Assembly (NCBI GenBank): GCA_045863295.1
Contig: BTWA01000001.1
Location: 96,001 to 160,000 of the forward strand
From: Candidatus Hydrogenedentota bacterium
GTDB taxonomy: Bacteria; Hydrogenedentota; Hydrogenedentia; Hydrogenedentales; SLHB01
Reading direction: 5' to 3'
Length of the DNA: 64,000 nucleotides
Positions 39,788 through 54,524 of this stretch are shown here, piece by piece. Under the pieces are notes generated by a model, which worked only from the letters and a program-made list of their open reading frames with translations, did no database searches and was not told where the DNA came from. The position numbers and the translations under genes are program-made. The number at the start of each line of letters is the position of its first letter. The stretch's first letter is position 1.

Positions 39788-39976
39788 AATCTACGGCTCC
39801 TGCATTCCTCCGAGAAGTATGCGCAATGGGAGATTCCGGGACAACCCCGTGGCAGCCCAAAGCGCGATTTTCGGTTGGGGAATGCGGGTCATGCGGTTAC
39901 ATGCGCTCGCGAATATGACGGCGTGGCGCTGACGCATATTTCGCGGTACAATGAATGCACTCACTGGCGGTTACTC

Positions 39977-42900
39977 ATGCGGAAGCGTCGACTCACACAT
40001 TCCTTACTTGTGCCGGCCGTTTTTCTGTCCGTGGCCCATTGCGCCTGCGGACTGGAGTTGCTTTGGAAAACGGATTTGGTTTCTTCTTCCCGCGGTTTGC
40101 CTTTGGCCGCTGATTTTGACGGCGACGGACTGCCGGAAATCATCGCCACCACACGGTTCGACGGCGCCGTATGGGTGCTCGACAACGTCGGGCGGGAAAT
40201 TCACAAGTTTACCCGTGACGCCTGGCTGGAAGGCGGCCTTGCGTCCAGCACTTCGTCCCCAGGCCGCCCGCGAATGCTGGCATACCAGCAGTCGGATGGA
40301 CGTGTTGTTTTGTTCAATGCGTCCACCGGATTGAGCGTGTATGCGGACGTTCCGGGAAACCCGGCCATCGGATGCGCTCCCGTGTTCGCCAATCTGAATG
40401 GCAAGGGCGCGGAAGAGATTCTGATTACCCGTAAGGACGGTGTCCTCTCGGCGTTTAACAATGCGCTTGAGCCCATCTGGCTCTACAGTGCCGGGAGCCC
40501 AATCGAGTCCGCACCTTCCGTCGCCCTTCTCTATACCGAGTTCGCGAGCGTCTACGTTTTGACCGCCGATGGCGTTCTTCATGCCGTTCGCGGCGACGGC
40601 ATGCCCATGTGGCGAGTTGCCCTGGCAAATGCCGCTCCGCGTTTCCCGTCCGTAACCGATGTCACGGTCGTGGAGATTGGCCGGGACGAACCGGCGGTAC
40701 TGGTGTCGGACGCGGCCGGTATCCTGTATGCCTTTGGTGCCGCCACTGGACGCGAGTTTTGGCGTGTCCAAGCCGCGGCCAGTCCAATGGGCGCACCCGC
40801 CTATATCACCATTTCAGGTCACCAGGACAACGCATTCGTTCTAATGAGCGAATCAGGCGAATTGGCAGTCGTTGACCGCGACGGCACATTGACTGCAACC
40901 GGCACATTGCCCAAAGGTCGGTACATTGCAAGGCCGTTGGTGGCCGACGTGGACGAGGATGGCGAACTTGAAATTGTGGCCGCGACCAACAACTGGCAAA
41001 TTGTAGTAGCCAATCGGACCGGCGAAGTCGAGGAATGGATTGATTTGCGCGGGAGTGCCCGCGAAGGTCTGATTATGGCTGACGTCAACGACGACGGCCG
41101 CCTGGAATTGCTGGCGGCCACGGATTGCGCCGCTGTCTACTGCTTTGCCACACGTGCACGTTCCGGTTGGGCGCACCCGCGATGTGGCGCCGCGAATACG
41201 GGCGTCGCCTCGGTCATCACGCCACGCCCAGTCCCCACGGACGCCATTGCCGTTTCTTCCCTGCGCTATACACCCAAAGTAACCGTAGCACCTCACACTA
41301 CAGGATCCACGTATACAACCGCCGTCTTGGAGTTTCAGCGCGGACACGGTGATCGCCATGTAGTGGCGACCATCCGGCAAGAAGGCCGCATAGTCGGCAG
41401 TACCGCAAAATCGCCGGAATCCGGAGAACTCGCGGTGACCGTTGCGCGGCGTTTTCCCGTAGAATTGACGTGCGATGTAATTGTGTATGGTTCCAGCGGG
41501 CGGCCCATAGGGCAGATGTTGGGAATTCCTGCCCTGCCCCCAAAAGACGACACCGTGCGGATGCATTCCGCCGAATCGTTACTGACATTAATGAACAGCC
41601 GTGGCGATGCATACCGTGTTCCTGCTTCATGGATGTTGCCCTCCGTTTCCGGCCGGTCCATGTGGCATGTGGCAAGTCACGCGCCTGAGGTATGGCGGGC
41701 GTTGCATATCCAAGACGATCCATTCATCGCGGATGCGGGAATGCGGGTCGTGGGGTCCGCGGCGAAGGAGCAGTCCGTTATTCGTGCGGGACATCCCGTC
41801 TGGGAAGTTCTTAAGCACAGTGAAAAACCGTTTGTAGTAATGAACGACTATTTCCGGCCACGCCAAGCCTACAGCAATGCCGATTATCAGGCCCTGGTCG
41901 AGATGGGCGGCGATCGGTTTCTCGGGTTTCAAGTACATGAGTGGGCCTATCCCATCTGGAAGCAACAACTCGAAGGCGCGGCTCAACCGCCATCCACACG
42001 CGATCAAGCCGCTCAAATCGTTCGCGACGGATACGCCACGGTCGCCGCGTTGGCGAACAACCACATGTTTCCGGGAGAAGGGTACGGACTTTTTCATCAC
42101 GTCGCCTACGAACAAGGCGCCGGCATGGCCTATCTGGAAGTGGGTGAAAATATACCCTGTGCTCCCCTGCTTACTGCTGCAATACGGGGGGCGGCGCGAC
42201 AGTTCGGGGGCCGGCCGTGGGGCGCATATATCTCGAATTGGTTTCGCGGTTCGGTCACTGACGGTCGTCTGGAAAACGCGGATTCCATAGGTTGGCGCAA
42301 GCCGGAAGACAGCATGACTCGATTTGGCGGTCATTCGCCTTCGCTCGAATTTCGGTTGGCCATGGCCGCATACCTCGCAGGCGCCTCAATCTTGCAGCAC
42401 GAGTCGGATCACTATCTCGGATCGGTGTATGCAACCGAGTACTCGAACACTTCCGTCGTTCTGTCCCGCCACGGCGCGGCCATGAAGCGATGGTTTGATT
42501 TCGCACACAACGATCGGGATCGCGGTATCCCTTATACGCCCGTCGCGTTCATGCTGGACGCAAACCATGGATGGCGGCCCCGCGAACTTATCTTTGGGCT
42601 ATGGCCTCCCACACGCGCGGAACAATCGATCGAGCGCATCTTGTTTCATACCTACTCGTTTAGCGGCCGGCTGGATTTCGAATCCGGCTATCTGACCAAC
42701 GGACGGTATGGCGATATCTTCGACATCGTGACCAGTGCTATCTCCACAAAGGGGCTCGAAGGGTATGGCGTGCTCTGGCCGCTGGGCGATGTTCCGCTTT
42801 CGGTCACACAGCGCCAATCCATTATGACGTATGTGGAACGAGGCGGAATCGCTGTACTGGATGGTTCCATCGCGCGGCAGTTTACACCTCATTTCACCGG

Positions 42901-43504
42901 CGTCCGCCTTGCCGATGGGTTTCTACACGATATCAGCATCCGTTCCTCCATTCAGGAACTGCCGCCATTAACTGATCCGTACCGGCATCGCCCCATGGCA
43001 ATTGGGCAAGAGGCCGTGCCGATAGCGTGGTCTGGACAAGGACGCCCGGTCATGGTTTGGAAGCAAGTGGGCCAGGGCGCACTGATCATTTCAGGGTTGG
43101 ATCATTGGCTTGATGTGCGCGGACAAATGCTTCCGGTCACAGGGCTCATTCTGCAAATGATTGAGAAGGCCTTTGTACCATTTTCAATCACGGGCGAAGT
43201 AGAGCGAATTCTGTCGAAGACTCGGGATGGCTGGATCATCGGCCTCATCAACAACAACGGAATTCGCAAAGTGCCGACACAGCAGGAAACCGTGGATCCC
43301 GCGGAAACCCGGTCATGCCTCATTCAATTTCGCGGATCGGCCCCCGCCCATTTCACGCCGCTGATGGGATCGTTCTCGTGGAACGAGTCCGCGGGGGCTG
43401 TTGAAGCAAGAATACCGCCCGGTGAAGTAGCGATAGTGCGTTTTGTGGACCCTGGCGCTGAGACTGCGGTACACGGCCCGCCGATTGCCACCCCGGCCTT
43501 GTAA
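39977..43504 (+). CDS. Large secreted modular protein: FG-GAP/PQQ-like propeller plus putative glycoside-hydrolase-like C-terminal region
   Basis: ADFDGDGLPEII, ADVDEDGELEIV and ADVNDDGRLELL repeats; C-terminal RGAARQFGGRPWGAYIS, RGIPYTPVA and YVERGG. Confidence 0.75.
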   Translation: MRKRRLTHSLLVPAVFLSVAHCACGLELLWKTDLVSSSRGLPLAADFDGDGLPEIIATTRFDGAVWVLDNVGREIHKFTRDAWLEGGLASSTSSPGRPRMLAYQQSDGRVVLFNASTGLSVYADVPGNPAIGCAPVFANLNGKGAEEILITRKDGVLSAFNNALEPIWLYSAGSPIESAPSVALLYTEFASVYVLTADGVLHAVRGDGMPMWRVALANAAPRFPSVTDVTVVEIGRDEPAVLVSDAAGILYAFGAATGREFWRVQAAASPMGAPAYITISGHQDNAFVLMSESGELAVVDRDGTLTATGTLPKGRYIARPLVADVDEDGELEIVAATNNWQIVVANRTGEVEEWIDLRGSAREGLIMADVNDDGRLELLAATDCAAVYCFATRARSGWAHPRCGAANTGVASVITPRPVPTDAIAVSSLRYTPKVTVAPHTTGSTYTTAVLEFQRGHGDRHVVATIRQEGRIVGSTAKSPESGELAVTVARRFPVELTCDVIVYGSSGRPIGQMLGIPALPPKDDTVRMHSAESLLTLMNSRGDAYRVPASWMLPSVSGRSMWHVASHAPEVWRALHIQDDPFIADAGMRVVGSAAKEQSVIRAGHPVWEVLKHSEKPFVVMNDYFRPRQAYSNADYQALVEMGGDRFLGFQVHEWAYPIWKQQLEGAAQPPSTRDQAAQIVRDGYATVAALANNHMFPGEGYGLFHHVAYEQGAGMAYLEVGENIPCAPLLTAAIRGAARQFGGRPWGAYISNWFRGSVTDGRLENADSIGWRKPEDSMTRFGGHSPSLEFRLAMAAYLAGASILQHESDHYLGSVYATEYSNTSVVLSRHGAAMKRWFDFAHNDRDRGIPYTPVAFMLDANHGWRPRELIFGLWPPTRAEQSIERILFHTYSFSGRLDFESGYLTNGRYGDIFDIVTSAISTKGLEGYGVLWPLGDVPLSVTQRQSIMTYVERGGIAVLDGSIARQFTPHFTGVRLADGFLHDISIRSSIQELPPLTDPYRHRPMAIGQEAVPIAWSGQGRPVMVWKQVGQGALIISGLDHWLDVRGQMLPVTGLILQMIEKAFVPFSITGEVERILSKTRDGWIIGLINNNGIRKVPTQQETVDPAETRSCLIQFRGSAPAHFTPLMGSFSWNESAGAVEARIPPGEVAIVRFVDPGAETAVHGPPIATPAL

Positions 43505-44675: not shown

Positions 44676-44722
44676 ATACTATATTTGGTGGCACTTACCT
44701 TTGCGAAGTCGATATGTTGCGC
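44676..44722 (+). promoter_or_regulatory. Tandem NrdR-like boxes
   Basis: ATACTATATTTGGTGG (44676-44691) and AGTCGATATGTTGCGC (44707-44722) compared with consensus acaCwAtATaTwGtgt; 31 bp start-to-start. Confidence 0.6.
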
Positions 44723-44813: not shown

Positions 44814-44843
44814 TTGACGAGAATCCCGTGGCGGTGGTAGAAT
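44814..44843 (+). promoter_or_regulatory. Candidate sigma70 promoter for the MshEN-DnaA/pil cluster
   Basis: TTGACG-N18-TAGAAT with an extended TG motif. Confidence 0.6.
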
Positions 44844-44906: not shown

Positions 44907-47198
44907 ATGCTTTCTTGGCGCCGAGACAAAGATAAAGACAAGGACAAAGCCCCGGCGGTACCCGCTCCACCGGAGCCGCCGCCCCAGGCGTTCGCGCGTC
45001 CTCGAACTGGCACGCGCCCCAACCGGGGACGCTTGGGCGAAGTCCTTGTAGACGAAGGAGTTATCTCCCAGGCTCAACTCGACGATGCCCTTCGCCGCCA
45101 AAAGGAAACAGGCGGCTTCATTGGCAAAGTCCTGGTCGACGCCGGATTCATTGACCAACGCACCCTAATCGCATTTCTTGTCAAGCAATGCAAGATTCCC
45201 CATATCAGCCTGCTGGACTATGAAATCAACTCGAAATTGTTTGAGCTCGTCCCAAAAGAGTTGTGCTCGAAGCACCACCTACTGCCGATCGACAAATTGG
45301 GAAAGATTCTGACTCTGGCGATGGTTGACCCGCTGGATGTTGACGCCTTGGAACAGGTCCGGTCTACGTGCCCCGACCTGAAGATCAAACCAATCTTGTG
45401 CGATTGGTCGCATTTTGAGTCGCTATCAAAGCGATTGTTGGAAGAGGGACCGGCGCAGAGTGCGCAAGAGTGGTCCAGCCCAGCCTACACGCTCCCGTCC
45501 AAACCGGTCGCCAAGGCCGTCCCCGCGCCCGACAAGTCCGCTTCCGCGTCGCCGCCCGTCCCCGAGAAGAAGCCAGATGCGGAGGAGGGACACCTCGATC
45601 CCTCGGTCATCGACCAGTTGGTAAAAGCCGCACAGGTAGAGGCAACGAAAACCGACGCTCACGCACCTGCGGAAATGCCACCCAAACCGGTGAAATTACC
45701 AGACATGGCTGCCGGTACGAACGTGGACGCCGTAGCACGCCGTTTAGAAGCCGGTATCGAAAGCCGTATAGCTGCGGCTATCGAATCGGCTTTGAGCAGG
45801 CAAGCGGCCACTGCCGAGCCCAATCCCGTTCCTGTGGCGAGCGACACACTGGAACTCGAGGAACGGATTTCAATTGCGGTGGCGTCTGCCATGGCCCAGC
45901 ACGCTCAGGTAGCCGCAGTTTCTCAAGAAGCGCTAAGCCGCATTGAGAAAACGCTCCAAGAACAAGCCGGGCTCCATGCGTCCGCGATTGTTTCCACAGC
46001 GACAGACGAGTCGTCCCGCGAAAACTTGTTGTTGCAGCTGGAACACCGGCTCCGCGACCACCTTGACCAGACCGTCTCCGAAGCACTCGAGCGACATGCC
46101 CACTTGGCCGCCGAGCATCAGGAGGCTCAAGATCGCTTTGAACACCAGCTGAAGTCACATCTGGAAACTGCGGTTACCGAGGCCGTTGAGCGTCAAGTGC
46201 AGTCGACGCTCGAACGTGAGGAGACGCTGCTACAAACGGCGGCTCAGCGGGCCGCCGATGCCGCCGCAGCGGTTGAAAAAGCTCTGGAGGAGATCAAGGC
46301 GCTCGAAAAGCCCGCGGAACCGGAATACGACAATGTCATGGCGTTTCCCGTTAGCCAGCCCACCCCGCTCGAACTTCATCTGGATGGCGGTGTACCGGAA
46401 CCGGTGCTGGATACGCCAGGCATGTCTATTGCCGCCGAAGGCCTTTCCGTCCATTTTCCGGACCTACCCAAGTTAAAGACGCGCCTGACCTTCAAGCGTT
46501 TTCTGTGCGATAGTCATAACCATTTTGCATGGACATTGGCCCAAGCCGTCGCCGATAACCCTGGCAACGCATTCAATCCACTTTACCTGCACGGTGGTCC
46601 CGGCTTGGGGAAGAGTCACCTCCTGAATTCCGTGGGCCTCCGCCTGGCGGGACGAAACGATGCTTCTCGTATCGTGGCTTTGACAGGGAACCGGTTTTTG
46701 CAGGGTTATCGTAAGGCTTTACAAGATAACAGCTTAGAGAGTTTTCGCCACCTGCTGATGCAATGCGAGATGGTCTTGTTTGACGATCTCCAAGCCTTGG
46801 CAAATCATCATGAGGCCCAAGAAGAACTGATCGACTTTCTCAATGCCATGGAGTCCAGTTCCCGGCAGTTGGTGCTTGCTGGGGATAAGCGGCCCGACCA
46901 TATGGCCGGCTTCGATCCCCGTATAATATCGCGACTGAGCGGCGGAGTGACGGTGCGGCTGCAAGCTCCCGATTTGGAGACGCGGATGGGCCTCCTGCAA
47001 CGGCAAGCGCGCGAAGAGAAAACGTTGGTCCCGGAAGAGACGATAGCCCTTATTGCCGACCGGATCCCCTCCGACATACGGGCGATGATGGGTGCATTGA
47101 GAAAACTCACCGCGTATGCGAAACTGATGAAGCAGGAACTCACCGCCGATACGGCCGTTGAGTGGCTCCGCCGTTTGGGCGTAGTGGACGCGGCCTGA
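44907..47198 (+). CDS. MshEN/T2SSE-N domain fused to a DnaA-type AAA+ domain (no DnaA domain IV)
   Basis: RLGEVLVDEGVISQAQLDDALRRQ and LTLAMVDPLD at the N-terminus; TFKRF...FNPLYLHGGPGLGKSHLL, LFDDLQ, QEE, RIISRL, PDLETR and DIRAMMGAL at the C-terminus. Confidence 0.9.
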   Translation: MLSWRRDKDKDKDKAPAVPAPPEPPPQAFARPRTGTRPNRGRLGEVLVDEGVISQAQLDDALRRQKETGGFIGKVLVDAGFIDQRTLIAFLVKQCKIPHISLLDYEINSKLFELVPKELCSKHHLLPIDKLGKILTLAMVDPLDVDALEQVRSTCPDLKIKPILCDWSHFESLSKRLLEEGPAQSAQEWSSPAYTLPSKPVAKAVPAPDKSASASPPVPEKKPDAEEGHLDPSVIDQLVKAAQVEATKTDAHAPAEMPPKPVKLPDMAAGTNVDAVARRLEAGIESRIAAAIESALSRQAATAEPNPVPVASDTLELEERISIAVASAMAQHAQVAAVSQEALSRIEKTLQEQAGLHASAIVSTATDESSRENLLLQLEHRLRDHLDQTVSEALERHAHLAAEHQEAQDRFEHQLKSHLETAVTEAVERQVQSTLEREETLLQTAAQRAADAAAAVEKALEEIKALEKPAEPEYDNVMAFPVSQPTPLELHLDGGVPEPVLDTPGMSIAAEGLSVHFPDLPKLKTRLTFKRFLCDSHNHFAWTLAQAVADNPGNAFNPLYLHGGPGLGKSHLLNSVGLRLAGRNDASRIVALTGNRFLQGYRKALQDNSLESFRHLLMQCEMVLFDDLQALANHHEAQEELIDFLNAMESSSRQLVLAGDKRPDHMAGFDPRIISRLSGGVTVRLQAPDLETRMGLLQRQAREEKTLVPEETIALIADRIPSDIRAMMGALRKLTAYAKLMKQELTADTAVEWLRRLGVVDAA

Positions 47199-47312: not shown

Positions 47313-49034
47313 GTGCCCCCAAAAATTGCCAAACGCCGCTTAGGCGACGTACTCCTCGAACAAAACCTAATCACCCGGGAACAACTGGACGAGTGCCTGA
47401 ATGTTCAACGGCAAACGGGCCAGAGCCTTGCCCACGTGCTTCTCACCAAGAAGTATTTGAGCGAGGAAGATCTAGTCATCACGCTCAGCGAACAGCTTGG
47501 AATTCCCCACATCCGCGTTGCGAACTACAACATTCACGAGGAAGTCCTGAAGGAAGTGCCCGAGACGCTCGCGCGTCAATACCTGATGCTTCCGGTCTCC
47601 GTGACCGGGGATGTCCTGACGCTGGCCATGGCCGATCCGCTGAACATCATGGCGCTCGATGATCTCCGAATGTTGACCAGTTACGAGATTGAGCCGGTGG
47701 TGGCCGTGGAATCCGAGTTGATGGAGGCCATTAACAAACACTATGGCGGCAACAAATCGGCCGAATTGTACAACGAATTAGTAACGGACGATCGCCAGGA
47801 CAGCCTCGAAGTACTGGAAGAGAAAGACACGATTGAAGATATTGCCTCCAACGAAGCGGAAGCCCAGGACGCGCCAATTGTCCGGCTTGCAAATCTAATA
47901 CTCGTGAATGCGCTTGAGGCGAGGGCAAGCGATATCCACATTGAACCGTTTGAAAAAGTATTGCGTGTCCGGTATCGCATCGATGGCATGCTTGAAGAGA
48001 CGAAAAGCCCGCCCAAGTCCATGCAAGCGGCGCTTATTTCCCGCCTGAAAATCATGTCGAATCTCGATATTGCCGAACACCGCTTGCCGCAGGACGGGCG
48101 ATTCAGAATCAAGTACCGTGCAAAGGAAGTCGACTTCCGCGTATCAATTCTACCCTGTTACTATGGCGAAAAAGTTGTGATGCGCGTGCTCGACAAGAGC
48201 AGCCTGACACTCGATTTGGATGGACTGGGTTTTGAGCAGCAGCCGATGGATGCGTTTCGCGACGCACTTCAACGGCCTTACGGCATGATTCTAGTTACCG
48301 GTCCCACGGGCAGCGGCAAAACGACCACGCTCTATAGCGCCCTGCATAAATTGAACGATCCCGACACCAATGTCGTGACGGTTGAGGACCCCGTTGAATA
48401 CGAACTTTTCGGCATCAATCAGGTGCAATGCAAGCCAGAAATCGGCCTAACCTTTGCCGCTTCCCTACGAAGCATTCTCCGCCAGGATCCGGATATTGTC
48501 ATGGTCGGTGAAATCCGCGACGAAGAAACGGCGGATATCGCGATTAAGGCAGCTCTGACGGGGCACCTTGTGCTGAGCACGTTGCATACGAACGATGCGG
48601 CCAGCGTGTTTACCCGTCTGGTTGACATGGGCATGGAGCCCTTCCTCGTGCAGTCGTCAGTGGTACTGGCGTCCGCGCAGCGGCTTATGCGGCGCATTTG
48701 CCCGGAATGCAAAGAACAGATTCGCGTACCGGACGAAGTTCTGGAACGGATTCAATTCAAGCCTGAGGCGGGATCGCCCACGCCAACGTGGGTGCGCGGC
48801 CGAGGCTGCAGCAAATGTAAGAATACCGGCTACCGGGGCCGTCTGGCGGTGCTTGAAGCCATGCCGGATTACCTTGAGTTGCAGGAATACATTATGAAGC
48901 GCGCGCCATCGTCCGAAATCAAACGGATTGCCATGGAGTGCGGCATGCGTTCGCTGCGTCAAAATGCCTTGACCAAAGCCGCGAACGGCCACACTACCAT
49001 TGAAGAAGTACTGCGAATTTCCGCCGCGGACTGA
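47313..49034 (+). CDS. pilB: Type IV pilus assembly ATPase
   Basis: N-terminal MshEN; ASDIHIEP, RLPQDGR, GPTGSGKTT, LRQDPD, TGHLVLSTLH and CPEC/CSKC zinc motif; AAGGAGG RBS before GTG. Confidence 0.95.
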   Translation: MPPKIAKRRLGDVLLEQNLITREQLDECLNVQRQTGQSLAHVLLTKKYLSEEDLVITLSEQLGIPHIRVANYNIHEEVLKEVPETLARQYLMLPVSVTGDVLTLAMADPLNIMALDDLRMLTSYEIEPVVAVESELMEAINKHYGGNKSAELYNELVTDDRQDSLEVLEEKDTIEDIASNEAEAQDAPIVRLANLILVNALEARASDIHIEPFEKVLRVRYRIDGMLEETKSPPKSMQAALISRLKIMSNLDIAEHRLPQDGRFRIKYRAKEVDFRVSILPCYYGEKVVMRVLDKSSLTLDLDGLGFEQQPMDAFRDALQRPYGMILVTGPTGSGKTTTLYSALHKLNDPDTNVVTVEDPVEYELFGINQVQCKPEIGLTFAASLRSILRQDPDIVMVGEIRDEETADIAIKAALTGHLVLSTLHTNDAASVFTRLVDMGMEPFLVQSSVVLASAQRLMRRICPECKEQIRVPDEVLERIQFKPEAGSPTPTWVRGRGCSKCKNTGYRGRLAVLEAMPDYLELQEYIMKRAPSSEIKRIAMECGMRSLRQNALTKAANGHTTIEEVLRISAAD

Positions 49035-49107: not shown

Positions 49108-50181
49108 ATGGCCGACATCAGCATGAAAGAACTCCTGGTCCAGATGATCGAGTTGGGGTCCAGCGACCTGCATATTGTCGTTGGATCTCCGCCGATAGTC
49201 CGCGTCAACGGATCGTTGGAGCCGCTCCCCGGGTATCCCCGCCTTCGGCCTGACGATACGCAGGAAGTAATCTACAGCGTAATGAACGAGGATCAGGTGG
49301 CGACCTTCGAAGCCACGCGCGAATGTGACATGTCTTTCGGTTTGGATGGACTGAGCCGATTCCGCCTAAATGTTTACCGCGACCGCGGGTCGGTTGTCGG
49401 GGCATTTCGTTCCATTCCGTTTGAGATTCGGACCTTTGAAGAACTGGGATTGCCTCGCGTCGTCGCCGATTTCGCGCACCGTCCATTGGGATTGATACTC
49501 GTGTGCGGACCCACCGGCAGCGGTAAATCGACAACGCTGGCGGCCATCATCGACCGCATCAACACAGAGCGGCCAGTACACATCATCACGGTCGAGGATC
49601 CGATCGAGTACCTGCACAACCACAAGACGGCGACCATCAACCAGCGAGAGGTGAACGCGGACACCAATTCGTTCGCGGCCGCACTGAAACACGTGTTGCG
49701 GCAGGATCCCGACGTGATTCTGATCGGTGAAATGCGCGACCCGGAGACCATCTCCGCGGCGCTGACCGTTGCGGAAACCGGCCACTTGGTGTTCGCCACG
49801 TTGCATACGAATGATGCGGTGCAGACCATTAACCGCATTGTGGACGTGTTTCCTTCCAATCAGCAGGCCCAGATCCGCACGCAGTTGTCATTCGTGCTGG
49901 AAGGCGTGTGCGTGCAACAGTTGATTCCGCGAGCAGACGGCATGGGCCGCGCGCTCGCCATGGAAATCATGTTGCCGAACACCGCCATACGTTCGTTGAT
50001 TCGCGAAGAAAAACTGCAGCAAATTCCGTCCATGATTGAAATTGGCGCGGGCGACGGCATGATGACCATGAACCAATCGCTGTATCGCCTGATCCGGCGC
50101 GGCGTCATCTCGCTCGACATCGCATTCAAGCGGACGATGGATCCGGAAGGGCTGCAGCGGCTCCTCGACAAAGGGAATTGA
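49108..50181 (+). CDS. pilT: Type IV pilus retraction ATPase
   Basis: SDLHI, GPTGSGKST, NQREV, AETGHLVFATLH, AIRSLIRE and GMMTM. Confidence 0.96.
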   Translation: MADISMKELLVQMIELGSSDLHIVVGSPPIVRVNGSLEPLPGYPRLRPDDTQEVIYSVMNEDQVATFEATRECDMSFGLDGLSRFRLNVYRDRGSVVGAFRSIPFEIRTFEELGLPRVVADFAHRPLGLILVCGPTGSGKSTTLAAIIDRINTERPVHIITVEDPIEYLHNHKTATINQREVNADTNSFAAALKHVLRQDPDVILIGEMRDPETISAALTVAETGHLVFATLHTNDAVQTINRIVDVFPSNQQAQIRTQLSFVLEGVCVQQLIPRADGMGRALAMEIMLPNTAIRSLIREEKLQQIPSMIEIGAGDGMMTMNQSLYRLIRRGVISLDIAFKRTMDPEGLQRLLDKGN

Positions 50182-50188
50182 CGCCTCT

Positions 50189-51811
50189 GTGATACGCACA
50201 ACCCGCACTGAGCCACTCCGGCCTTCCCTGGAAGAATCGGCGGCGTGGCTGTGGGTTGTGGGCGTAATCCGCTTGGTGCTCATCGCCATCATCGCCTTGG
50301 GCGCCTACCTCGTGGGTGGCTTCACGCCCGGTGCGACCCCCTACCTGCTTGGCTTCTATGGCTTCGGCATTGCTGCCGGTGCCTGGTCCATTTATTCCAT
50401 CCGAAAAACGCACGCGTACTCGGATCTTCAAACAGTAGCGCAGATGCTGGTGGACTTTGGAGTGGTCGCCGCAACCGTTAGCTTCACCGGCGGATCCGAA
50501 AGCTTTTTTTCATTTCTATTTGTGGTGGTAATCCTGGAGTCCGGCGTACTGCTGGGGCTGGCCCAGGGATTCGCCATTGCAACGCTCGCCATGGGCATCA
50601 TGGGTGTGCACGTGATGACAGCAACGCCGCCGGATGAGTTGCCGGGGGCGCCCGCAGCGTTTGTCAATTCGGCGACGCTCTGGTACGACTTCTTTGTGCA
50701 AACGCTTGCCTATTACCTGACCGCATCGATCAGTGGGTACTGGAACCAACAGGTCCGCCGGTTGCAACAATTTCAGCGCGAAATTCTGGACAACATGAAC
50801 AACGGATTTCTCATCGCCGACAACAGCGGCAACGTGGTGGTCCTCAACAAGGCCGCGGCCCGGATTCTTGAATGCAGCGAACAGGAAGCCCTGGGAAAAC
50901 CCGTTCAAAGCATCTTGCGCGATGCATCCGGCGGAGAGTGCCCCGTGGTGACCGCCCTTCGATCCAACCGAGATTTCACCCGATACGAATTTAACCTGAT
51001 TGCGCCTTCGACGGCCATCAAGATACTGGGGTTAAGCACCAGCCGGATGTTGGATTGGCGAGGCCGCGCGACGGGCATCATTGTCATCTTCATGGACCTC
51101 ACTGAATTGAACCAGATGCGCGAAGATCTAAAACGCCAGGATCGGTTGGCGGTCGTGGGCGAACTGGCGGCAGGACTCGCGCATGAAATCCGCAACCCGG
51201 TGGCCGCGATACGCGGAGCAGTCGACGAATTGCAGGACAATCTGCAGAACACGGCCATCGCGGAGAAGCTTGCACGGCTGGGTCTGCGCGAATGCGATCA
51301 TTTAAACAAGATCGTGACCGACTTTCTTGAGTTCGCGCGCGAACCCAAATTGCGCCGCGACGTATTCGACGTGCGATCGCTCGCGCAAGAAACCGTGGAC
51401 TCGTTGATGCGTCTGGACAATGACGATGAAGCATTTAAGGTGGCAACCACCTTTCCAAAATCACCCTGCTACGTATCCGGCGACGCGGCTCAAATCAAGC
51501 AAGTGTTCCTGAATCTGGGAAAGAACGCAGTAGAGGCCATGGGCGGTAAAGGCCAGTTGACCGTCGTTGTCGTGCGTGACACGGTTTCAATCGAAACTCG
51601 TTTTGAAGACACGGGCCCCGGCATCGATCCGGACAAGGTTGCGCGCATTTTTGAGCCTTTCTATACTACAAAAGCATCCGGTGTGGGCATGGGGCTTGCC
51701 ATTTGCCACCGCATCGTTACAGCCCATGACGGAACCATTCGCGCCACGTCGCGCGAAGGCGGGGGGACCACCCTGAGCGTCCGCCTGCCCGCAACCCGGA
51801 TCGAGGAGTGA
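50189..51811 (+). CDS. pilS: PilS-type sensor histidine kinase (about 6 TM, PAS, HisKA, HATPase)
   Basis: TGGSESFFSFLF membrane motif, LAHEIRNP, QVFLNLGKNA and GVGMGL; located between pilT and a sigma54 response regulator. Confidence 0.82.
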   Translation: MIRTTRTEPLRPSLEESAAWLWVVGVIRLVLIAIIALGAYLVGGFTPGATPYLLGFYGFGIAAGAWSIYSIRKTHAYSDLQTVAQMLVDFGVVAATVSFTGGSESFFSFLFVVVILESGVLLGLAQGFAIATLAMGIMGVHVMTATPPDELPGAPAAFVNSATLWYDFFVQTLAYYLTASISGYWNQQVRRLQQFQREILDNMNNGFLIADNSGNVVVLNKAAARILECSEQEALGKPVQSILRDASGGECPVVTALRSNRDFTRYEFNLIAPSTAIKILGLSTSRMLDWRGRATGIIVIFMDLTELNQMREDLKRQDRLAVVGELAAGLAHEIRNPVAAIRGAVDELQDNLQNTAIAEKLARLGLRECDHLNKIVTDFLEFAREPKLRRDVFDVRSLAQETVDSLMRLDNDDEAFKVATTFPKSPCYVSGDAAQIKQVFLNLGKNAVEAMGGKGQLTVVVVRDTVSIETRFEDTGPGIDPDKVARIFEPFYTTKASGVGMGLAICHRIVTAHDGTIRATSREGGGTTLSVRLPATRIEE

Positions 51812-51817
51812 GTCCAA

Positions 51818-53209
51818 TTGGGCGCGAAACACCGCGTGCTTGTAGTTGACGACGAAGCCGGCGTGCGCGAACTGCTGGAAATTGTGCTGTCCAATGCAGG
51901 TTACGACGTGGTTGTGCTCGATAGTGTCGTGCCGGCGCGTGAACGGTTGGAGAAAGAAGCCTTCGATCTGGCCATTACCGATTTGCGGATGGGCAGTGAA
52001 CGCGACGCTGGCATGCAATTCCTGTCGTGGCTGCAAGAACATGCCCCCATGACCCCCGCCATCATGATGACTGCTTACGGATCGGTCGAGACCGCCATTG
52101 AAGCCATGAAACGGGGCGCCGCCGATTACATCATGAAACCGTTCAAAAACGACGAAGTCCGGCTCGTCGTGCAGCGCGCCATCGAGCAGCGCAACCTCCG
52201 GCGCGAAAATCAGGCGCATCGGCGTGAACAGGCCGCCCGCGGCGACATCAGTAACATTATCGGCACCAGCAAAGCCATTGAAGAAGTGCGCGACATGATT
52301 CGCCGCGTGGCCAAATTGCCGAGCACTGTGGCCATCCACGGTGAAAGCGGTACGGGCAAAGAACTGGTAGCGCGCGGAATCCACCAGCTTAGCGATCGCG
52401 CCACGAAACCGTTTGTCGCCATCAACTGCGGCGGTTTTCCAGAGACCCTCCTCGAGAGCGAGTTGTTTGGACATCGCAAAGGCTCGTTTACCGGCGCAGT
52501 GGATGACAAGGAGGGGTTGTTCGTTGTGGCCGACGGCGGCACGCTGTTTCTGGACGAAGTAGGCGAGATGCCGCTCTCGCTCCAAGTGAAGCTATTGCGC
52601 GTGTTGGACAATAACACCGTGTTGCCCGTGGGCAGCACAACGCCGATCCACGTGGACGTGCGCATCATTTCGGCGACCAACCGGAACCTGGAGAAGATGG
52701 CCCAGGAAGGCACGTTTCGTGAAGACCTGTTCTACCGTTTGAACGTCATTCCAATCACCGTTCCGCCATTGCGCGAACGTTCAGACGACATACCACTCCT
52801 GGCGCGCACTTTTGTGGAGCGTCACGCCCGAAAAATGTCCCGTGCCGCCGTTGAGCTTTCGCCTGAGGCCGAATCGGCCTTGCAGCAGTACAACTGGCCG
52901 GGCAATGTGCGCGAATTGATGAACGTACTCGAACGCGCGGTGGCGCTGTGCCGGGACAGCCGAGTGGACGCCGTGGATTTGCCGAAGAATATTCAGACCT
53001 ATCTGGCACCCACGGAAGCGGCCAAGACAAAGCTGCCGGACGTGGGGTTCGATCTTGAAGCCCATATCTCGGACATCGAAATCAATTTTATCGAACAAGC
53101 ACTGCGGAACGCCAAGTATTCGCAAAAGCGCGCCGCGGAATTGCTTGGACTCACGTCGCGATCGCTGCGATACCGACTGAAGAAATACGGCCTGAGCGAC
53201 GAAGATTAA
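51818..53209 (+). CDS. pilR: PilR-type sigma54-dependent response regulator (REC, AAA+, Fis HTH)
   Basis: [33 protein letters not shown] and RSLRYRLKKYG. Confidence 0.85.
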   Translation: MGAKHRVLVVDDEAGVRELLEIVLSNAGYDVVVLDSVVPARERLEKEAFDLAITDLRMGSERDAGMQFLSWLQEHAPMTPAIMMTAYGSVETAIEAMKRGAADYIMKPFKNDEVRLVVQRAIEQRNLRRENQAHRREQAARGDISNIIGTSKAIEEVRDMIRRVAKLPSTVAIHGESGTGKELVARGIHQLSDRATKPFVAINCGGFPETLLESELFGHRKGSFTGAVDDKEGLFVVADGGTLFLDEVGEMPLSLQVKLLRVLDNNTVLPVGSTTPIHVDVRIISATNRNLEKMAQEGTFREDLFYRLNVIPITVPPLRERSDDIPLLARTFVERHARKMSRAAVELSPEAESALQQYNWPGNVRELMNVLERAVALCRDSRVDAVDLPKNIQTYLAPTEAAKTKLPDVGFDLEAHISDIEINFIEQALRNAKYSQKRAAELLGLTSRSLRYRLKKYGLSDED

Positions 53210-53213
53210 CCAC

Positions 53214-54524
53214 TTACGCCAGATAGTTCAGCAAGGCGTTCGCCACGCGCCCGTTGCGGCCGTCCTCGTAGTAGAACTTGGCAGTTTGTGTCAGCCGGTT
53301 GCCGCCGGAAGTCTTCTCGTTGATGTTGGTGTACCCCAAGTCAATGGTGGATACGCCTGCATCCTTCAGAGAGATGAGTTCGCCTTCTTCCGTGCTGCCG
53401 TCGCCATCGTCGCGCCATAGCCGCAAGTCGCCGTATTTCTCGTCGTTCCGATCGATGCGGCCATCGTTGTTGCTATCCAGTTTTCGCAACTCTTCAAATC
53501 CATGCGCCGCGCCACGCTGATCGCCGAACAGTTCCGTGCCGTCATCGATTGTCCCGTTGCCGTTCCGGTCAAGCGCGAGAAAAGCGTCGCCGCCGTTCAC
53601 AAAGCCGGTTCTAACCGCCGCGCCGCTCCCCAACAGATCGAAATTTGCGCCGTTCCTGTAATTCGTGAGCTCAATACCGTCACCGTCCAAATCGAACACA
53701 ATGGGATCGGATTCCTGCACTTTTCCCTGTGTCACTTCGACGGAAGTAAATTCAAACTCCAATTGAATCTGAAATCCGGCCGCCTGAACCGTTGTGCCGC
53801 CTCCGTTTGCCGCTGGCGAAGCAAATAGCGGATTGTCCAGCAGGCCGCCCTCCTGCAAGCCTTTCAACAAGTTGTTGAAGCGCGTTTCAAAATCGCCTTC
53901 GCCTTTGAAGAAACCATCCAGCAACTCCAATAACTTATTGAGTACTTCGTCGGCCTTGCTCAGTGCATCATCAGCGAAAGCGAGAAACGAATCGAATGCC
54001 TCATCGGCATTCACCGATTGCTCCGCGCCCGTCGCGAACCCGTTCAGGGCTGCGCCCGATATCGAGACAGACAGCGAGAATCGTTGAGCCGTCAAACGGC
54101 CTGCTTCCACCAAACGGTTTCCACGCGCACCGTCCAGATTTTCCGCCGCATTCTGTATGCGTTGAGAAAACCTGGCAACTTCAATCTCGCGCGATTCAGC
54201 GTAGAATTCGAAGGTAAGCTGGTTGGCCGAGGCCGCGCTCGATGCGGCCCCCTCGTCTCCCGAGGATGCAGCCTGCTTGGAATTGTAGGAGAACGAGAGC
54301 TTTTCCACCAACGATCGGTAGACGAAGCCTTCGAACTGTTCCGCGATTTCACCGGCTTGATCCGGCCCGAACGAATCCGACGGTTCGGACGCAGACCCGG
54401 ATGCTGGCGTGGTGCTTCCCTTCGATTGGGTCAGCAGGTTGGTCAAGGCCCGAGCCGATCGGTTGAACAACGATTCCACCGATGCGCCAAGCGGAGACAA
54501 TACGCCTCCCGTAGAACTCCCCAT
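53214..54524 (-). CDS. Hypothetical protein with a C-terminal calcium-binding DxDGDG/EF-hand-like domain
   Basis: DPIVFDLDGDGIE, LALDRNGNGTIDDGTELFG, LDSNNDGRID and LWRDDGDG; GGAGG RBS; no signal peptide. Confidence 0.78.
   Translation of the reverse strand: MGSSTGGVLSPLGASVESLFNRSARALTNLLTQSKGSTTPASGSASEPSDSFGPDQAGEIAEQFEGFVYRSLVEKLSFSYNSKQAASSGDEGAASSAASANQLTFEFYAESREIEVARFSQRIQNAAENLDGARGNRLVEAGRLTAQRFSLSVSISGAALNGFATGAEQSVNADEAFDSFLAFADDALSKADEVLNKLLELLDGFFKGEGDFETRFNNLLKGLQEGGLLDNPLFASPAANGGGTTVQAAGFQIQLEFEFTSVEVTQGKVQESDPIVFDLDGDGIELTNYRNGANFDLLGSGAAVRTGFVNGGDAFLALDRNGNGTIDDGTELFGDQRGAAHGFEELRKLDSNNDGRIDRNDEKYGDLRLWRDDGDGSTEEGELISLKDAGVSTIDLGYTNINEKTSGGNRLTQTAKFYYEDGRNGRVANALLNYLA

Follow-up and report, generated by a model that had tools for sequence, protein, structure and literature searches.

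We analyzed a 64,000-nucleotide stretch of a Candidatus Hydrogenedentota genome (contig BTWA01000001.1, positions 96,001 to 160,000 of the forward strand), hereafter the window, in which an open reading frame of 763 amino acids with an ATG start (44907..47198, + strand) encodes an unusual fusion protein. It joins an intact MshEN domain, a type of receptor for cyclic di-GMP (c-di-GMP), to a complete domain III of the replication initiator DnaA through a 340-residue linker that is partly disordered and partly made of long helices; the opposite strand over the same span is riddled with stops. Because this gene is the first of a pilus-motor operon across the phylum, it more likely regulates pili than DNA replication, and we think it somewhat probable that the fusion serves the type IVa pilus motor as an accessory c-di-GMP sensor and ATP switch rather than being a replication protein.

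Gene order at the pilus-motor locus

Pilus genes follow the fusion gene on the same strand. The gene for the type IVa pilus extension ATPase, pilB (47313..49034, +; TIGR02538, 689.5 bits, cut-off 675.65), starts 114 nt downstream behind a strong AAGGAGG ribosome-binding site, with no terminator-like site on the + strand between the two genes. It is followed by pilT, encoding the retraction ATPase (49108..50181, +; TIGR01420, 472 bits), by a pilS-like sensor histidine kinase gene (50189..51811, +) with a PilS-type six-transmembrane region and PAS, HisKA, and HATPase_c domains in Pfam, and by a pilR-like gene for a sigma-54-dependent response regulator (51818..53209, +; Pfam).

A preliminary description of the locus, made from the sequence alone, had linked the fusion to pilB and pilT, and the gene order in relatives bears this out. 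A scan of one genome per species returned 445 related stretches, and the locus counts given throughout refer to the best 80 of them. Profile hidden Markov models of both halves fell in one shared open frame in 72 of the 80 loci, while 5 were cut by a contig end and 3 had the N-terminal half only. The next gene was pilB in 67 of the 72 fusion loci; its N-terminus was cut by a contig end in 3 and there was no downstream DNA in 2, which places pilB directly downstream in 70 of 70 testable loci. Full pilB was present in 69 of the 80 loci, with pilT after it in 56, absent in 9 despite at least 1.5 kb of downstream sequence, and beyond judgment in 4; pilT, pilS, and pilR all came after pilB in 51. 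No upstream partner was conserved, the largest upstream clusters being an oxidoreductase (13 loci) and a PpiD-like rotamase (8 loci). The fusion gene is therefore the first of a conserved block in which pilB is the constant partner.

The same block could also house a c-di-GMP-responsive scaffold or adaptor that acts off the motor, whether through PilS/PilR input, as an organizer of the cell pole, or on another output such as exopolysaccharide, with the DnaA module serving merely as a polymerizing unit. We consider this possible, though improbable. It would fit the presence of pilS and pilR within the block in the 51 loci, the long helical repeats of the linker, whose copy number varies, and a second phylum-wide protein with a DnaA-III-like head and a long coiled coil, whose occurrence in 114 of 135 genomes suggests that the phylum reuses the DnaA-III module as an assembly unit. 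It is opposed by the 9 loci that keep the fusion and pilB without pilT, pilS, or pilR, which again leaves pilB as the constant partner, and by the paralogy of the fusion N-domain to the N1 domain of PilB.

The best + strand promoter candidate near the gene is a sigma-70-type site at 44814..44843 (TTGACG, 18 nt, TAGAAT, the second hexamer preceded by TG), roughly 64 nt ahead of the start codon, which agrees with the consensus at 10 of 12 positions and is a consensus match only. We also found a sigma-54-like element, TGGCAC-N6-TTGC, about 200 nt upstream (44689-44704) and one base off the canonical spacing, and rejected it as a promoter because such a site occurs in only 1 of 79 orthologous upstream regions. 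The canonical sigma-54 pattern itself occurs in the window at chance level (41 found against 35 expected), and the element at 44689-44704 is not among these matches.

Other neighbors in the window are unrelated, with LptF/G and others further downstream and a DinB-like gene, a 1209-aa FG-GAP protein, and aspS upstream. The FG-GAP/beta-propeller-repeat protein (39875-43504) lies two genes upstream and is not conserved beside the fusion elsewhere. A 436-aa open reading frame (53214-54524, - strand) that converges with pilR gave only sub-threshold Pfam matches, to EF-hand.

Architecture of the fusion protein

An AlphaFold model built from an alignment of 110 of 120 listed family proteins placed two folded regions, residues 41-180 and 520-757, both with predicted local distance difference test (pLDDT) values above 90. 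The segments below are given with their + strand coordinates. Residues 1-41 (44907..45029) form a basic, Pro-rich tail predicted to be disordered (pLDDT <50), which opens with the family-typical ML(S/G/N)(W/R)(R/K)(K/R); the commonest N-termini in the family are MLSWRR, MLGRRK, MLSWRK, and MLNWRK (n = 110). The predicted c-di-GMP-binding module MshEN_N follows at residues 42-94 (45030..45188), identified by NCBIfam model NF053729 and a gapless alignment to MshE (5htl), and consists of a 24-residue motif I (42-65), a 5-residue spacer (66-70), and a 24-residue motif II (71-94). Residues 95-180 (45189..45446) are the MshEN_C or T2SSE_N subdomain, a paralogue of the PilB N1 domain (PF05157; pLDDT >90).

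Between the folded regions, a Pro/Ala-rich linker (residues 181-312; 45447..45842) is mostly disordered, with mean pLDDT mostly below 50 and two short predicted helices (233-244 and 274-296); it differs in length between family members and its columns are poorly conserved, and family proteins range from 553 to 993 aa (n = 110). Two long helices (313-364 and 368-466; 45843..46304; pLDDT 63-87) made of repeated Ala/Glu-rich amphipathic segments come next, and Pfam gave a weak DUF445 match alone there, below its cut-off. A connector predicted to be disordered (467-519; 46305..46463; pLDDT 39-47) leads to the ATPase. Here the family carries a D-E-R-V-R-x-A-L motif ahead of its AAA+ domain, with near-invariant D and A columns, which is lost in the window copy (E511 and F517 at those columns).

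Residues 520-757 (46464..47177) are a complete DnaA-type AAA+ domain III, IIIa together with the lid IIIb, on the agreement of Pfam, phmmer, AlphaFold, and Foldseek, as the preliminary description had read it after a linker of about 340 residues. That description also had the protein stop where DnaA domain IV would begin and lack domain I; the end of the fusion indeed falls at B. subtilis DnaA residue 343-348, where the domain III-IV linker, given as residues 333-346 in excerpts of a structural study (PMC10721633), gives way to domain IV, and Pfam detected neither DnaA_N nor Bac_DnaA_C. Nor did the fusion match the T2SSE motor ATPase domain PF00437, on which the adjacent PilB scores 468.6 bits. 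The last residues, 758-763 with the stop codon (47178..47198), form a tail ending in Ala-Ala, a dipeptide shared by 97 of 110 family members, mostly as Glu-Ala-Ala (64) or Asp-Ala-Ala (20). C-terminal Ala-Ala resembles the C-terminal tags read by ClpXP, and in this family it may be a degradation signal, which would fit a short-lived regulator.

The MshEN half and the adjacent PilB

The MshEN assignment at residues 42-65, with the rest of a PilB-like N-domain behind it, is confirmed. NF053729 scored 62 bits over residues 42-94 (cut-off 38) and Pfam MshEN (PF05157) 55.6 bits over residues 96-177 (cut-off 23.1), while the N-domain aligned gaplessly to residues 7-128 of V. cholerae MshE (5htl) and Foldseek laid it on c-di-GMP-bound MshE with a template modeling (TM) score of 0.69. 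Substituting G11 or G40 abolishes c-di-GMP binding by MshE, according to the accessible text of its description (PMC5013675). These essential glycines are G44 and G73 in the window copy, and their equivalents are kept in 107 and 109 of 110 family members, respectively, as are those of L25 (106), L58 (110), and Q61 (107); the R9 equivalent is Arg in 87 of 110 and Lys in 5. The sole systematic departure from the motif is at MshE R38, where all 110 members have Phe (F71 in the window copy), outside both the Arg of the first position of motif II and the R/K/P/N of the relaxed motif. In the alignment, PilF GSPII-B, which binds with high affinity, has Leu there, so Phe may be tolerated in the fusion. 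We conclude from these residues that the fusion N-domain has an intact c-di-GMP-binding motif, and infer that it binds the ligand.

The adjacent PilB presents a different picture. Residues 9-154 of this PilB run colinear with the fusion N-domain at 33% identity, yet the G40 equivalent is Gly in 0 of 69 adjacent PilB proteins (Ala 34, Pro 19, Gln 12, Ser 3, Val 1) and the G11 equivalent is Gly in only 33 of 69. At the R38 equivalent they have Ser (51/69) or Asn (15/69). The Ser and Ala in the N-domain of the window PilB (47313-47798) also occur in the first GSPII domain of T. thermophilus PilF, which does not bind. On these motif comparisons, sensing may have moved from PilB to the fusion.

The genome gave 17 GGDEF matches, so c-di-GMP is made in this genome. 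It also has 12 open frames with an MshEN domain, three of them in a second cluster on the same contig, outside the window and near a PilM-like gene (G000:C1:259357-272103), and several of the genomic MshEN frames, at 457-514 aa, seem too short for motor ATPases.

The DnaA-type AAA+ half

Likeness of the second half to DnaA is high throughout its length. Pfam Bac_DnaA matched residues 523-683 (140.7 bits), and phmmer aligned residues 522-755 to domain III of B. subtilis DnaA (8bv3) over 234 residues with zero gaps (E 1.3e-46). The model of residues 520-757 superposed on DnaA domain III in Foldseek with TM 0.90 and a root-mean-square deviation (rmsd) of 2.0 Å (8bv3), and with TM 0.93 and rmsd 1.6 Å (2z4r). 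All the motifs named in the preliminary description could be located, namely Walker A (GPGLGKS, K569), Walker B (LFDD, D626 and D627), the sensor I Asp (D660), the box VII arginines R672 and R676, of which R676 is the arginine finger, and the sensor II Arg (R725). The domain scored below the curated cut-offs both for DnaA (TIGR00362, 246.6 against 343.9 bits) and for Hda (TIGR03420, 91.3 against 194.8 bits), and by sequence it is closer to DnaA than to Hda.

We then compared 72 fusion domains with 21 canonical DnaA proteins of the same phylum, using a gapless offset in which the fusion residue number minus 412 gives the B. subtilis DnaA number. The Walker A Lys, both Walker B Asp, the arginine finger, and the sensor II Arg were each present in 72 of 72 fusions, and the sensor I Asp in 61. 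The equivalents of E183, N187, I190, I193, and E223, by contrast, were invariant in 21 of 21 canonical DnaA and replaced and variable in the 72 fusions; at the I190 equivalent, for example, 27 fusions have Ala, and Glu, Met, Gly, Ser, and Lys each occur in 6, and the window copy has N595, Q599, R602, L605, and H635 at these positions. In excerpts of the structural work, these five residues of B. subtilis DnaA capture or contact the strand of single-stranded DNA (ssDNA) at the DnaA-trios (PMC10721633). With ATP-site and finger residues invariant and ssDNA-capturing ones replaced, the ATP assembly switch is under selection and the grip on origin DNA is not.

This pattern bears on the proposal, made in the preliminary description, of a c-di-GMP-responsive DnaA modulator or decoy. 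Such a protein would join or cap the DnaA oligomer at the origin, or insert an Hda-like arginine finger into the ATP site of DnaA, so that pilus and surface signals tuned the timing of replication initiation, with the Ala-Ala end making the signal short-lived. The invariant finger, sensor II, and Walker motifs and the gapless alignment to domain III agree with it, as does a tree grouping the fusions with the DnaA of the phylum, which was not rejected (p-AU 0.949, approximately unbiased test), and a link from pilus through c-di-GMP to the cell cycle is described for Caulobacter in the accessible text of one study (PMC7196804). However, the neighbor fixed in the testable loci is pilB and not dnaA, the initiator-specific, ssDNA-capturing residues that are invariant in the canonical proteins are not kept, and forms without the ATPase occupy the same operon slot. 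Both curated models also place the domain below their cut-offs, and an Hda-type clamp motif, of which the preliminary description had likewise seen no obvious sign, was found in 0 of 110 members (QL[SPD]L[PF]L or QL[SDE]LF). We therefore regard a DnaA modulator as unlikely, the invariance of ATP site and finger notwithstanding. Complex prediction of the fusion C-domain with domain III of the genome's own DnaA and two ATP gave 0.31 and 0.15 against a mark of 0.32, with controls not folded, and tells neither for nor against contact. That DnaA is canonical and encoded on another contig, and carries DnaA_N, Bac_DnaA, and Bac_DnaA_C.

A second proposal, that the module is an ssDNA-handling factor of a DNA-uptake pilus and binds incoming ssDNA at the pilus base, seems to us very improbable. 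Type IV pili take up DNA in many bacteria, DnaA domain III binds ssDNA in the excerpted account (PMC10721633), and the equivalents of R202, E228, and K222 are retained. The base-capturing E183, N187, I190, and I193 equivalents, on the other hand, are replaced and variable, the conserved block contains no competence genes, and ATPase-less forms exist. The other function suggested in the preliminary description, a repurposed ATPase of the pilus machine, is better supported than the DnaA modulator; its ssDNA-binding variant is disfavored by the lost capture residues.

The genome contains a third DnaA-type protein, outside the window (L003:1-1953, - strand, equal to G000:C57:9429-12425), in which the head is a degenerate DnaA domain III (49-52 bits with Pfam Bac_DnaA) and leads into a coiled coil of about 750 aa, where a crescentin-rod model matched weakly and below its cut-off. 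Matches to this head came from 114 of 135 phylum genomes, where the open frames measured about 190 to 1600 aa, and from 0 of 10 genomes of family f8. A 50% representative library also places odd architectures among the nearest relatives of the canonical DnaA (P0123, P0126, P0124, and P0129), including proteins of 1876 and 1990 aa and others of 670-700 aa; in the latter, the domain III match either lies at one extreme of the protein, N- or C-terminal, or is split over two stretches.

Distribution and integrity of the fusion

A protein search returned 314 relatives among 8000 scored candidates. Both Pfam domains, MshEN and Bac_DnaA, were present in all 119 other relatives among the matches listed, a list that covered proteins of 419-1336 aa. 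In the databases these relatives go by "hypothetical protein," "ATP-binding protein," or "DnaA/Hda family protein," and some are mislabeled "chromosomal replication initiator protein DnaA." In the ESM Atlas, the fusion architecture forms two clusters, with 72 and 56 members, each under the name "hypothetical protein."

Against 135 genomes of the phylum, the C-domain profile gave a fusion-level match (at least 309 bits) in 112, a match at the level of canonical DnaA only (at most 293 bits) in 19, and none at E 1e-60 in 4; the count of 112 uses the best E-value per genome, with the cut set between 3.9e-92 and 4.0e-87. By the depositors' labels, the record titles of the 80 loci comprise 58 Hydrogenedentota or synonyms, 15 Nitrospiraceae/Nitrospirales, 5 "uncultured bacterium," 1 FCB group, and 1 Rhodothermaeota. 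For the 22 of 80 operon-bearing records not titled Hydrogenedentota, either the family reaches other lineages or the labels are provisional.

Contig pieces at least 99% identical to the fusion gene tile it in sludge and bioreactor runs of three other studies (one run, labeled RNA, is probably DNA). The pieces are short and of low depth, and no single one covers the entire gene, so those runs alone do not prove continuity. That 72 of the 80 public loci carry the fusion as a single open frame rules out an assembly chimera.

In the portions of the literature covered on MshEN domains, c-di-GMP and DnaA, pili of Hydrogenedentes, and PilB cofactors, we found no description of such a fusion, and the statement that no characterized protein has this architecture stands within that scope. 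The MshEN-DnaA arrangement is absent from the list of MshEN architectures in Supplementary Table 4 of PMC5013675, and a term search of that supplement was likewise negative.

Forms without the ATPase and origin of the module

Three loci (L082, L086, and L090) encode an MshEN domain and an Ala/Glu-rich helical tail and then stop, without the ATPase, and pilB directly follows this form in L086 and L090. In at least 7 of the 19 genomes that lack a fusion-level C-domain (G008, G035, G036, G040, G057, G073, and G090), the N-domain has a match of 45-51% identity, within open frames of 336-642 aa. Each of the 19 has only one DnaA-type match among the matches listed, so the DnaA module was not simply split off. 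The constant core of the family is therefore MshEN with the linker, to which the DnaA module is a dispensable addition.

To place the module, a tree was built from 24 of the 72 fusion domains, 11 of the 21 canonical DnaA, and 40 of 120 other DnaA of suitable length. The fusion domains formed their own clade (Shimodaira-Hasegawa-like approximate likelihood ratio test, SH-aLRT, 100) on a long branch from all canonical DnaA, whose point of attachment the free quick tree left unresolved. When the fusions were constrained to join the phylum's own DnaA, the log-likelihood rose by 41.96 over the free quick tree (p-AU 0.949). In view of this higher likelihood, we do not treat the module as unrelated to the dnaA of the phylum; the sequences allow, and even favor, an origin by duplication of it. 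In the simplest history, a duplicated 5' part of pilB would have been joined to a fragment of dnaA.

Comparison with known systems

The fusion resembles the MshEN/GSPII receptors (MshE, 5htl; T. thermophilus PilF GSPII-B; M. xanthus PilB) in its two motifs, spacer, and T2SSE_N subdomain, and in retaining both glycines and the leucine set. It differs from the motor ATPases of this group in having no T2SSE motor, with a DnaA-type AAA+ module as its output instead, and in the Phe at the R38 position. With DnaA (B. subtilis 8bv3 and 8btg; T. maritima 2z4r) it shares the whole of domain III, including the lid and the nucleotide-site and arginine-finger residues, but it has no domain I (PF11638), II, or IV (PF08299) and no ssDNA-capturing residues, and it is encoded in a pilus operon, with the canonical dnaA elsewhere in the genome. 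Like Hda/HdaA, it has a DnaA-related AAA+ domain with an arginine finger and no DNA-binding domain; unlike Hda, it has a 520-residue N-terminal extension and no match to the clamp-binding motif in 0 of 110 family members, and Hda structures fit the fusion model less closely than DnaA does (TM 0.64-0.77, rmsd 3.6-5.4).

Separate c-di-GMP-sensing cofactors of PilB exist, namely FimX and PilZ in Xanthomonas and Pseudomonas, as treated in the accessible part of a 2024 review (PMC11656802). By analogy, the fusion may do the same job, as a separate c-di-GMP receptor for a PilB that does not sense. FimX and PilZ differ from this MshEN and AAA+ protein in having EAL/GGDEF and PilZ folds and no ATP switch, and the terms DnaA and AAA+ are absent from the accessible part of that review of PilB cofactors (PMC11656802). 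Stand-alone MshEN proteins, PA3740 of P. aeruginosa and FrgA of M. xanthus, have been linked to swarming or motility (PMC5013675, in excerpt), and like them the fusion has MshEN without a motor ATPase. Their C-termini, as given in the same excerpts, differ from that of the fusion, being a diverged T2SSE_N1 or an unknown domain with HEAT repeats, with no AAA+.

Proposed role in pilus control

Taken as an accessory sensor and ATP switch of the pilus motor, the fusion would work as follows. Its MshEN domain would bind c-di-GMP and may supply the sensing that the PilB of the operon lost, since that PilB has lost a key motif glycine. As a paralogue of the PilB N1 domain, which is thought to dock at the PilM/PilC socket (PMC11656802, accessible part), the PilB-like N-domain would meet the PilB motor or the PilM/PilC docking site. 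The DnaA-type module would be an ATP-dependent self-assembly switch, a multimer with ATP and a monomer with ADP, that no longer handles origin DNA, and its assembly state would set the number of sensor domains presented. The conserved C-terminal Ala-Ala may make the fusion a protease substrate with a limited lifetime. Together, the level of c-di-GMP and the ATP state would gate pilus extension against retraction.

Several observations weigh against a sensor and switch of the pilus motor. Gene order, to begin with, is not function. The window PilB remains above the cut-off of the NCBIfam c-di-GMP motif model (55.7 against 38 bits), and restoring consensus residues in the PilF domain did not regain binding, so motif residues alone do not decide binding and a hand-over of sensing to the fusion is unproven. 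The module remains much like DnaA, such that canonical DnaA proteins of the phylum score 283-293 bits on the fusion profile, and three DNA-contacting positions of B. subtilis DnaA are retained, the R202 equivalent in 71 and the E228 equivalent in 72 of 72 fusions, while 69 of 72 have a basic residue or His at the K222 equivalent; contact with nucleic acid or with DnaA could therefore persist to some extent. The window copy, finally, has the most divergent C-domain among the matches listed, scoring 313 bits where most reach 342-462, and its end branch is 2.21 long (median 0.45), and traits of the family may hold less well for it.

This divergence could mean that the window copy is decaying under relaxed selection on its ATPase half, since its full-length C-domain score is the lowest among the matches listed and its D-E-R-V-R-x-A-L motif is missing. 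Its C-domain is 31-40% identical to other fusion C-domains, and its N-domain is well conserved, with best segments 45-67% identical to relatives in most loci. We nevertheless find decay hard to credit: the 763-codon frame is intact; K569, D626, D627, D660, R676, and R725 are all retained; both domains are modeled with high pLDDT; and nearly identical pieces are present in other samples.

Many family members carry the DnaA initiator label in databases, which could distort estimates of dnaA copy number from metagenome-assembled genomes. If the fusion did modulate DnaA after all, surface contact or pilus activity would set the start of replication in an uncultured phylum. As an accessory sensor and switch of the pilus motor, it leads to the prediction that c-di-GMP should be bound by the N-domain of the fusion but not by that of the adjacent PilB. 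In this phylum, the ATP-driven assembly core of the universal replication initiator would then have been reused outside replication, phylum-wide, in a pilus-motor operon. The arrangement suggests a new form of c-di-GMP control of the type IV pilus motor, in which the sensor is a separate protein paralogous to the N-domain of the motor, whose own motif has decayed.

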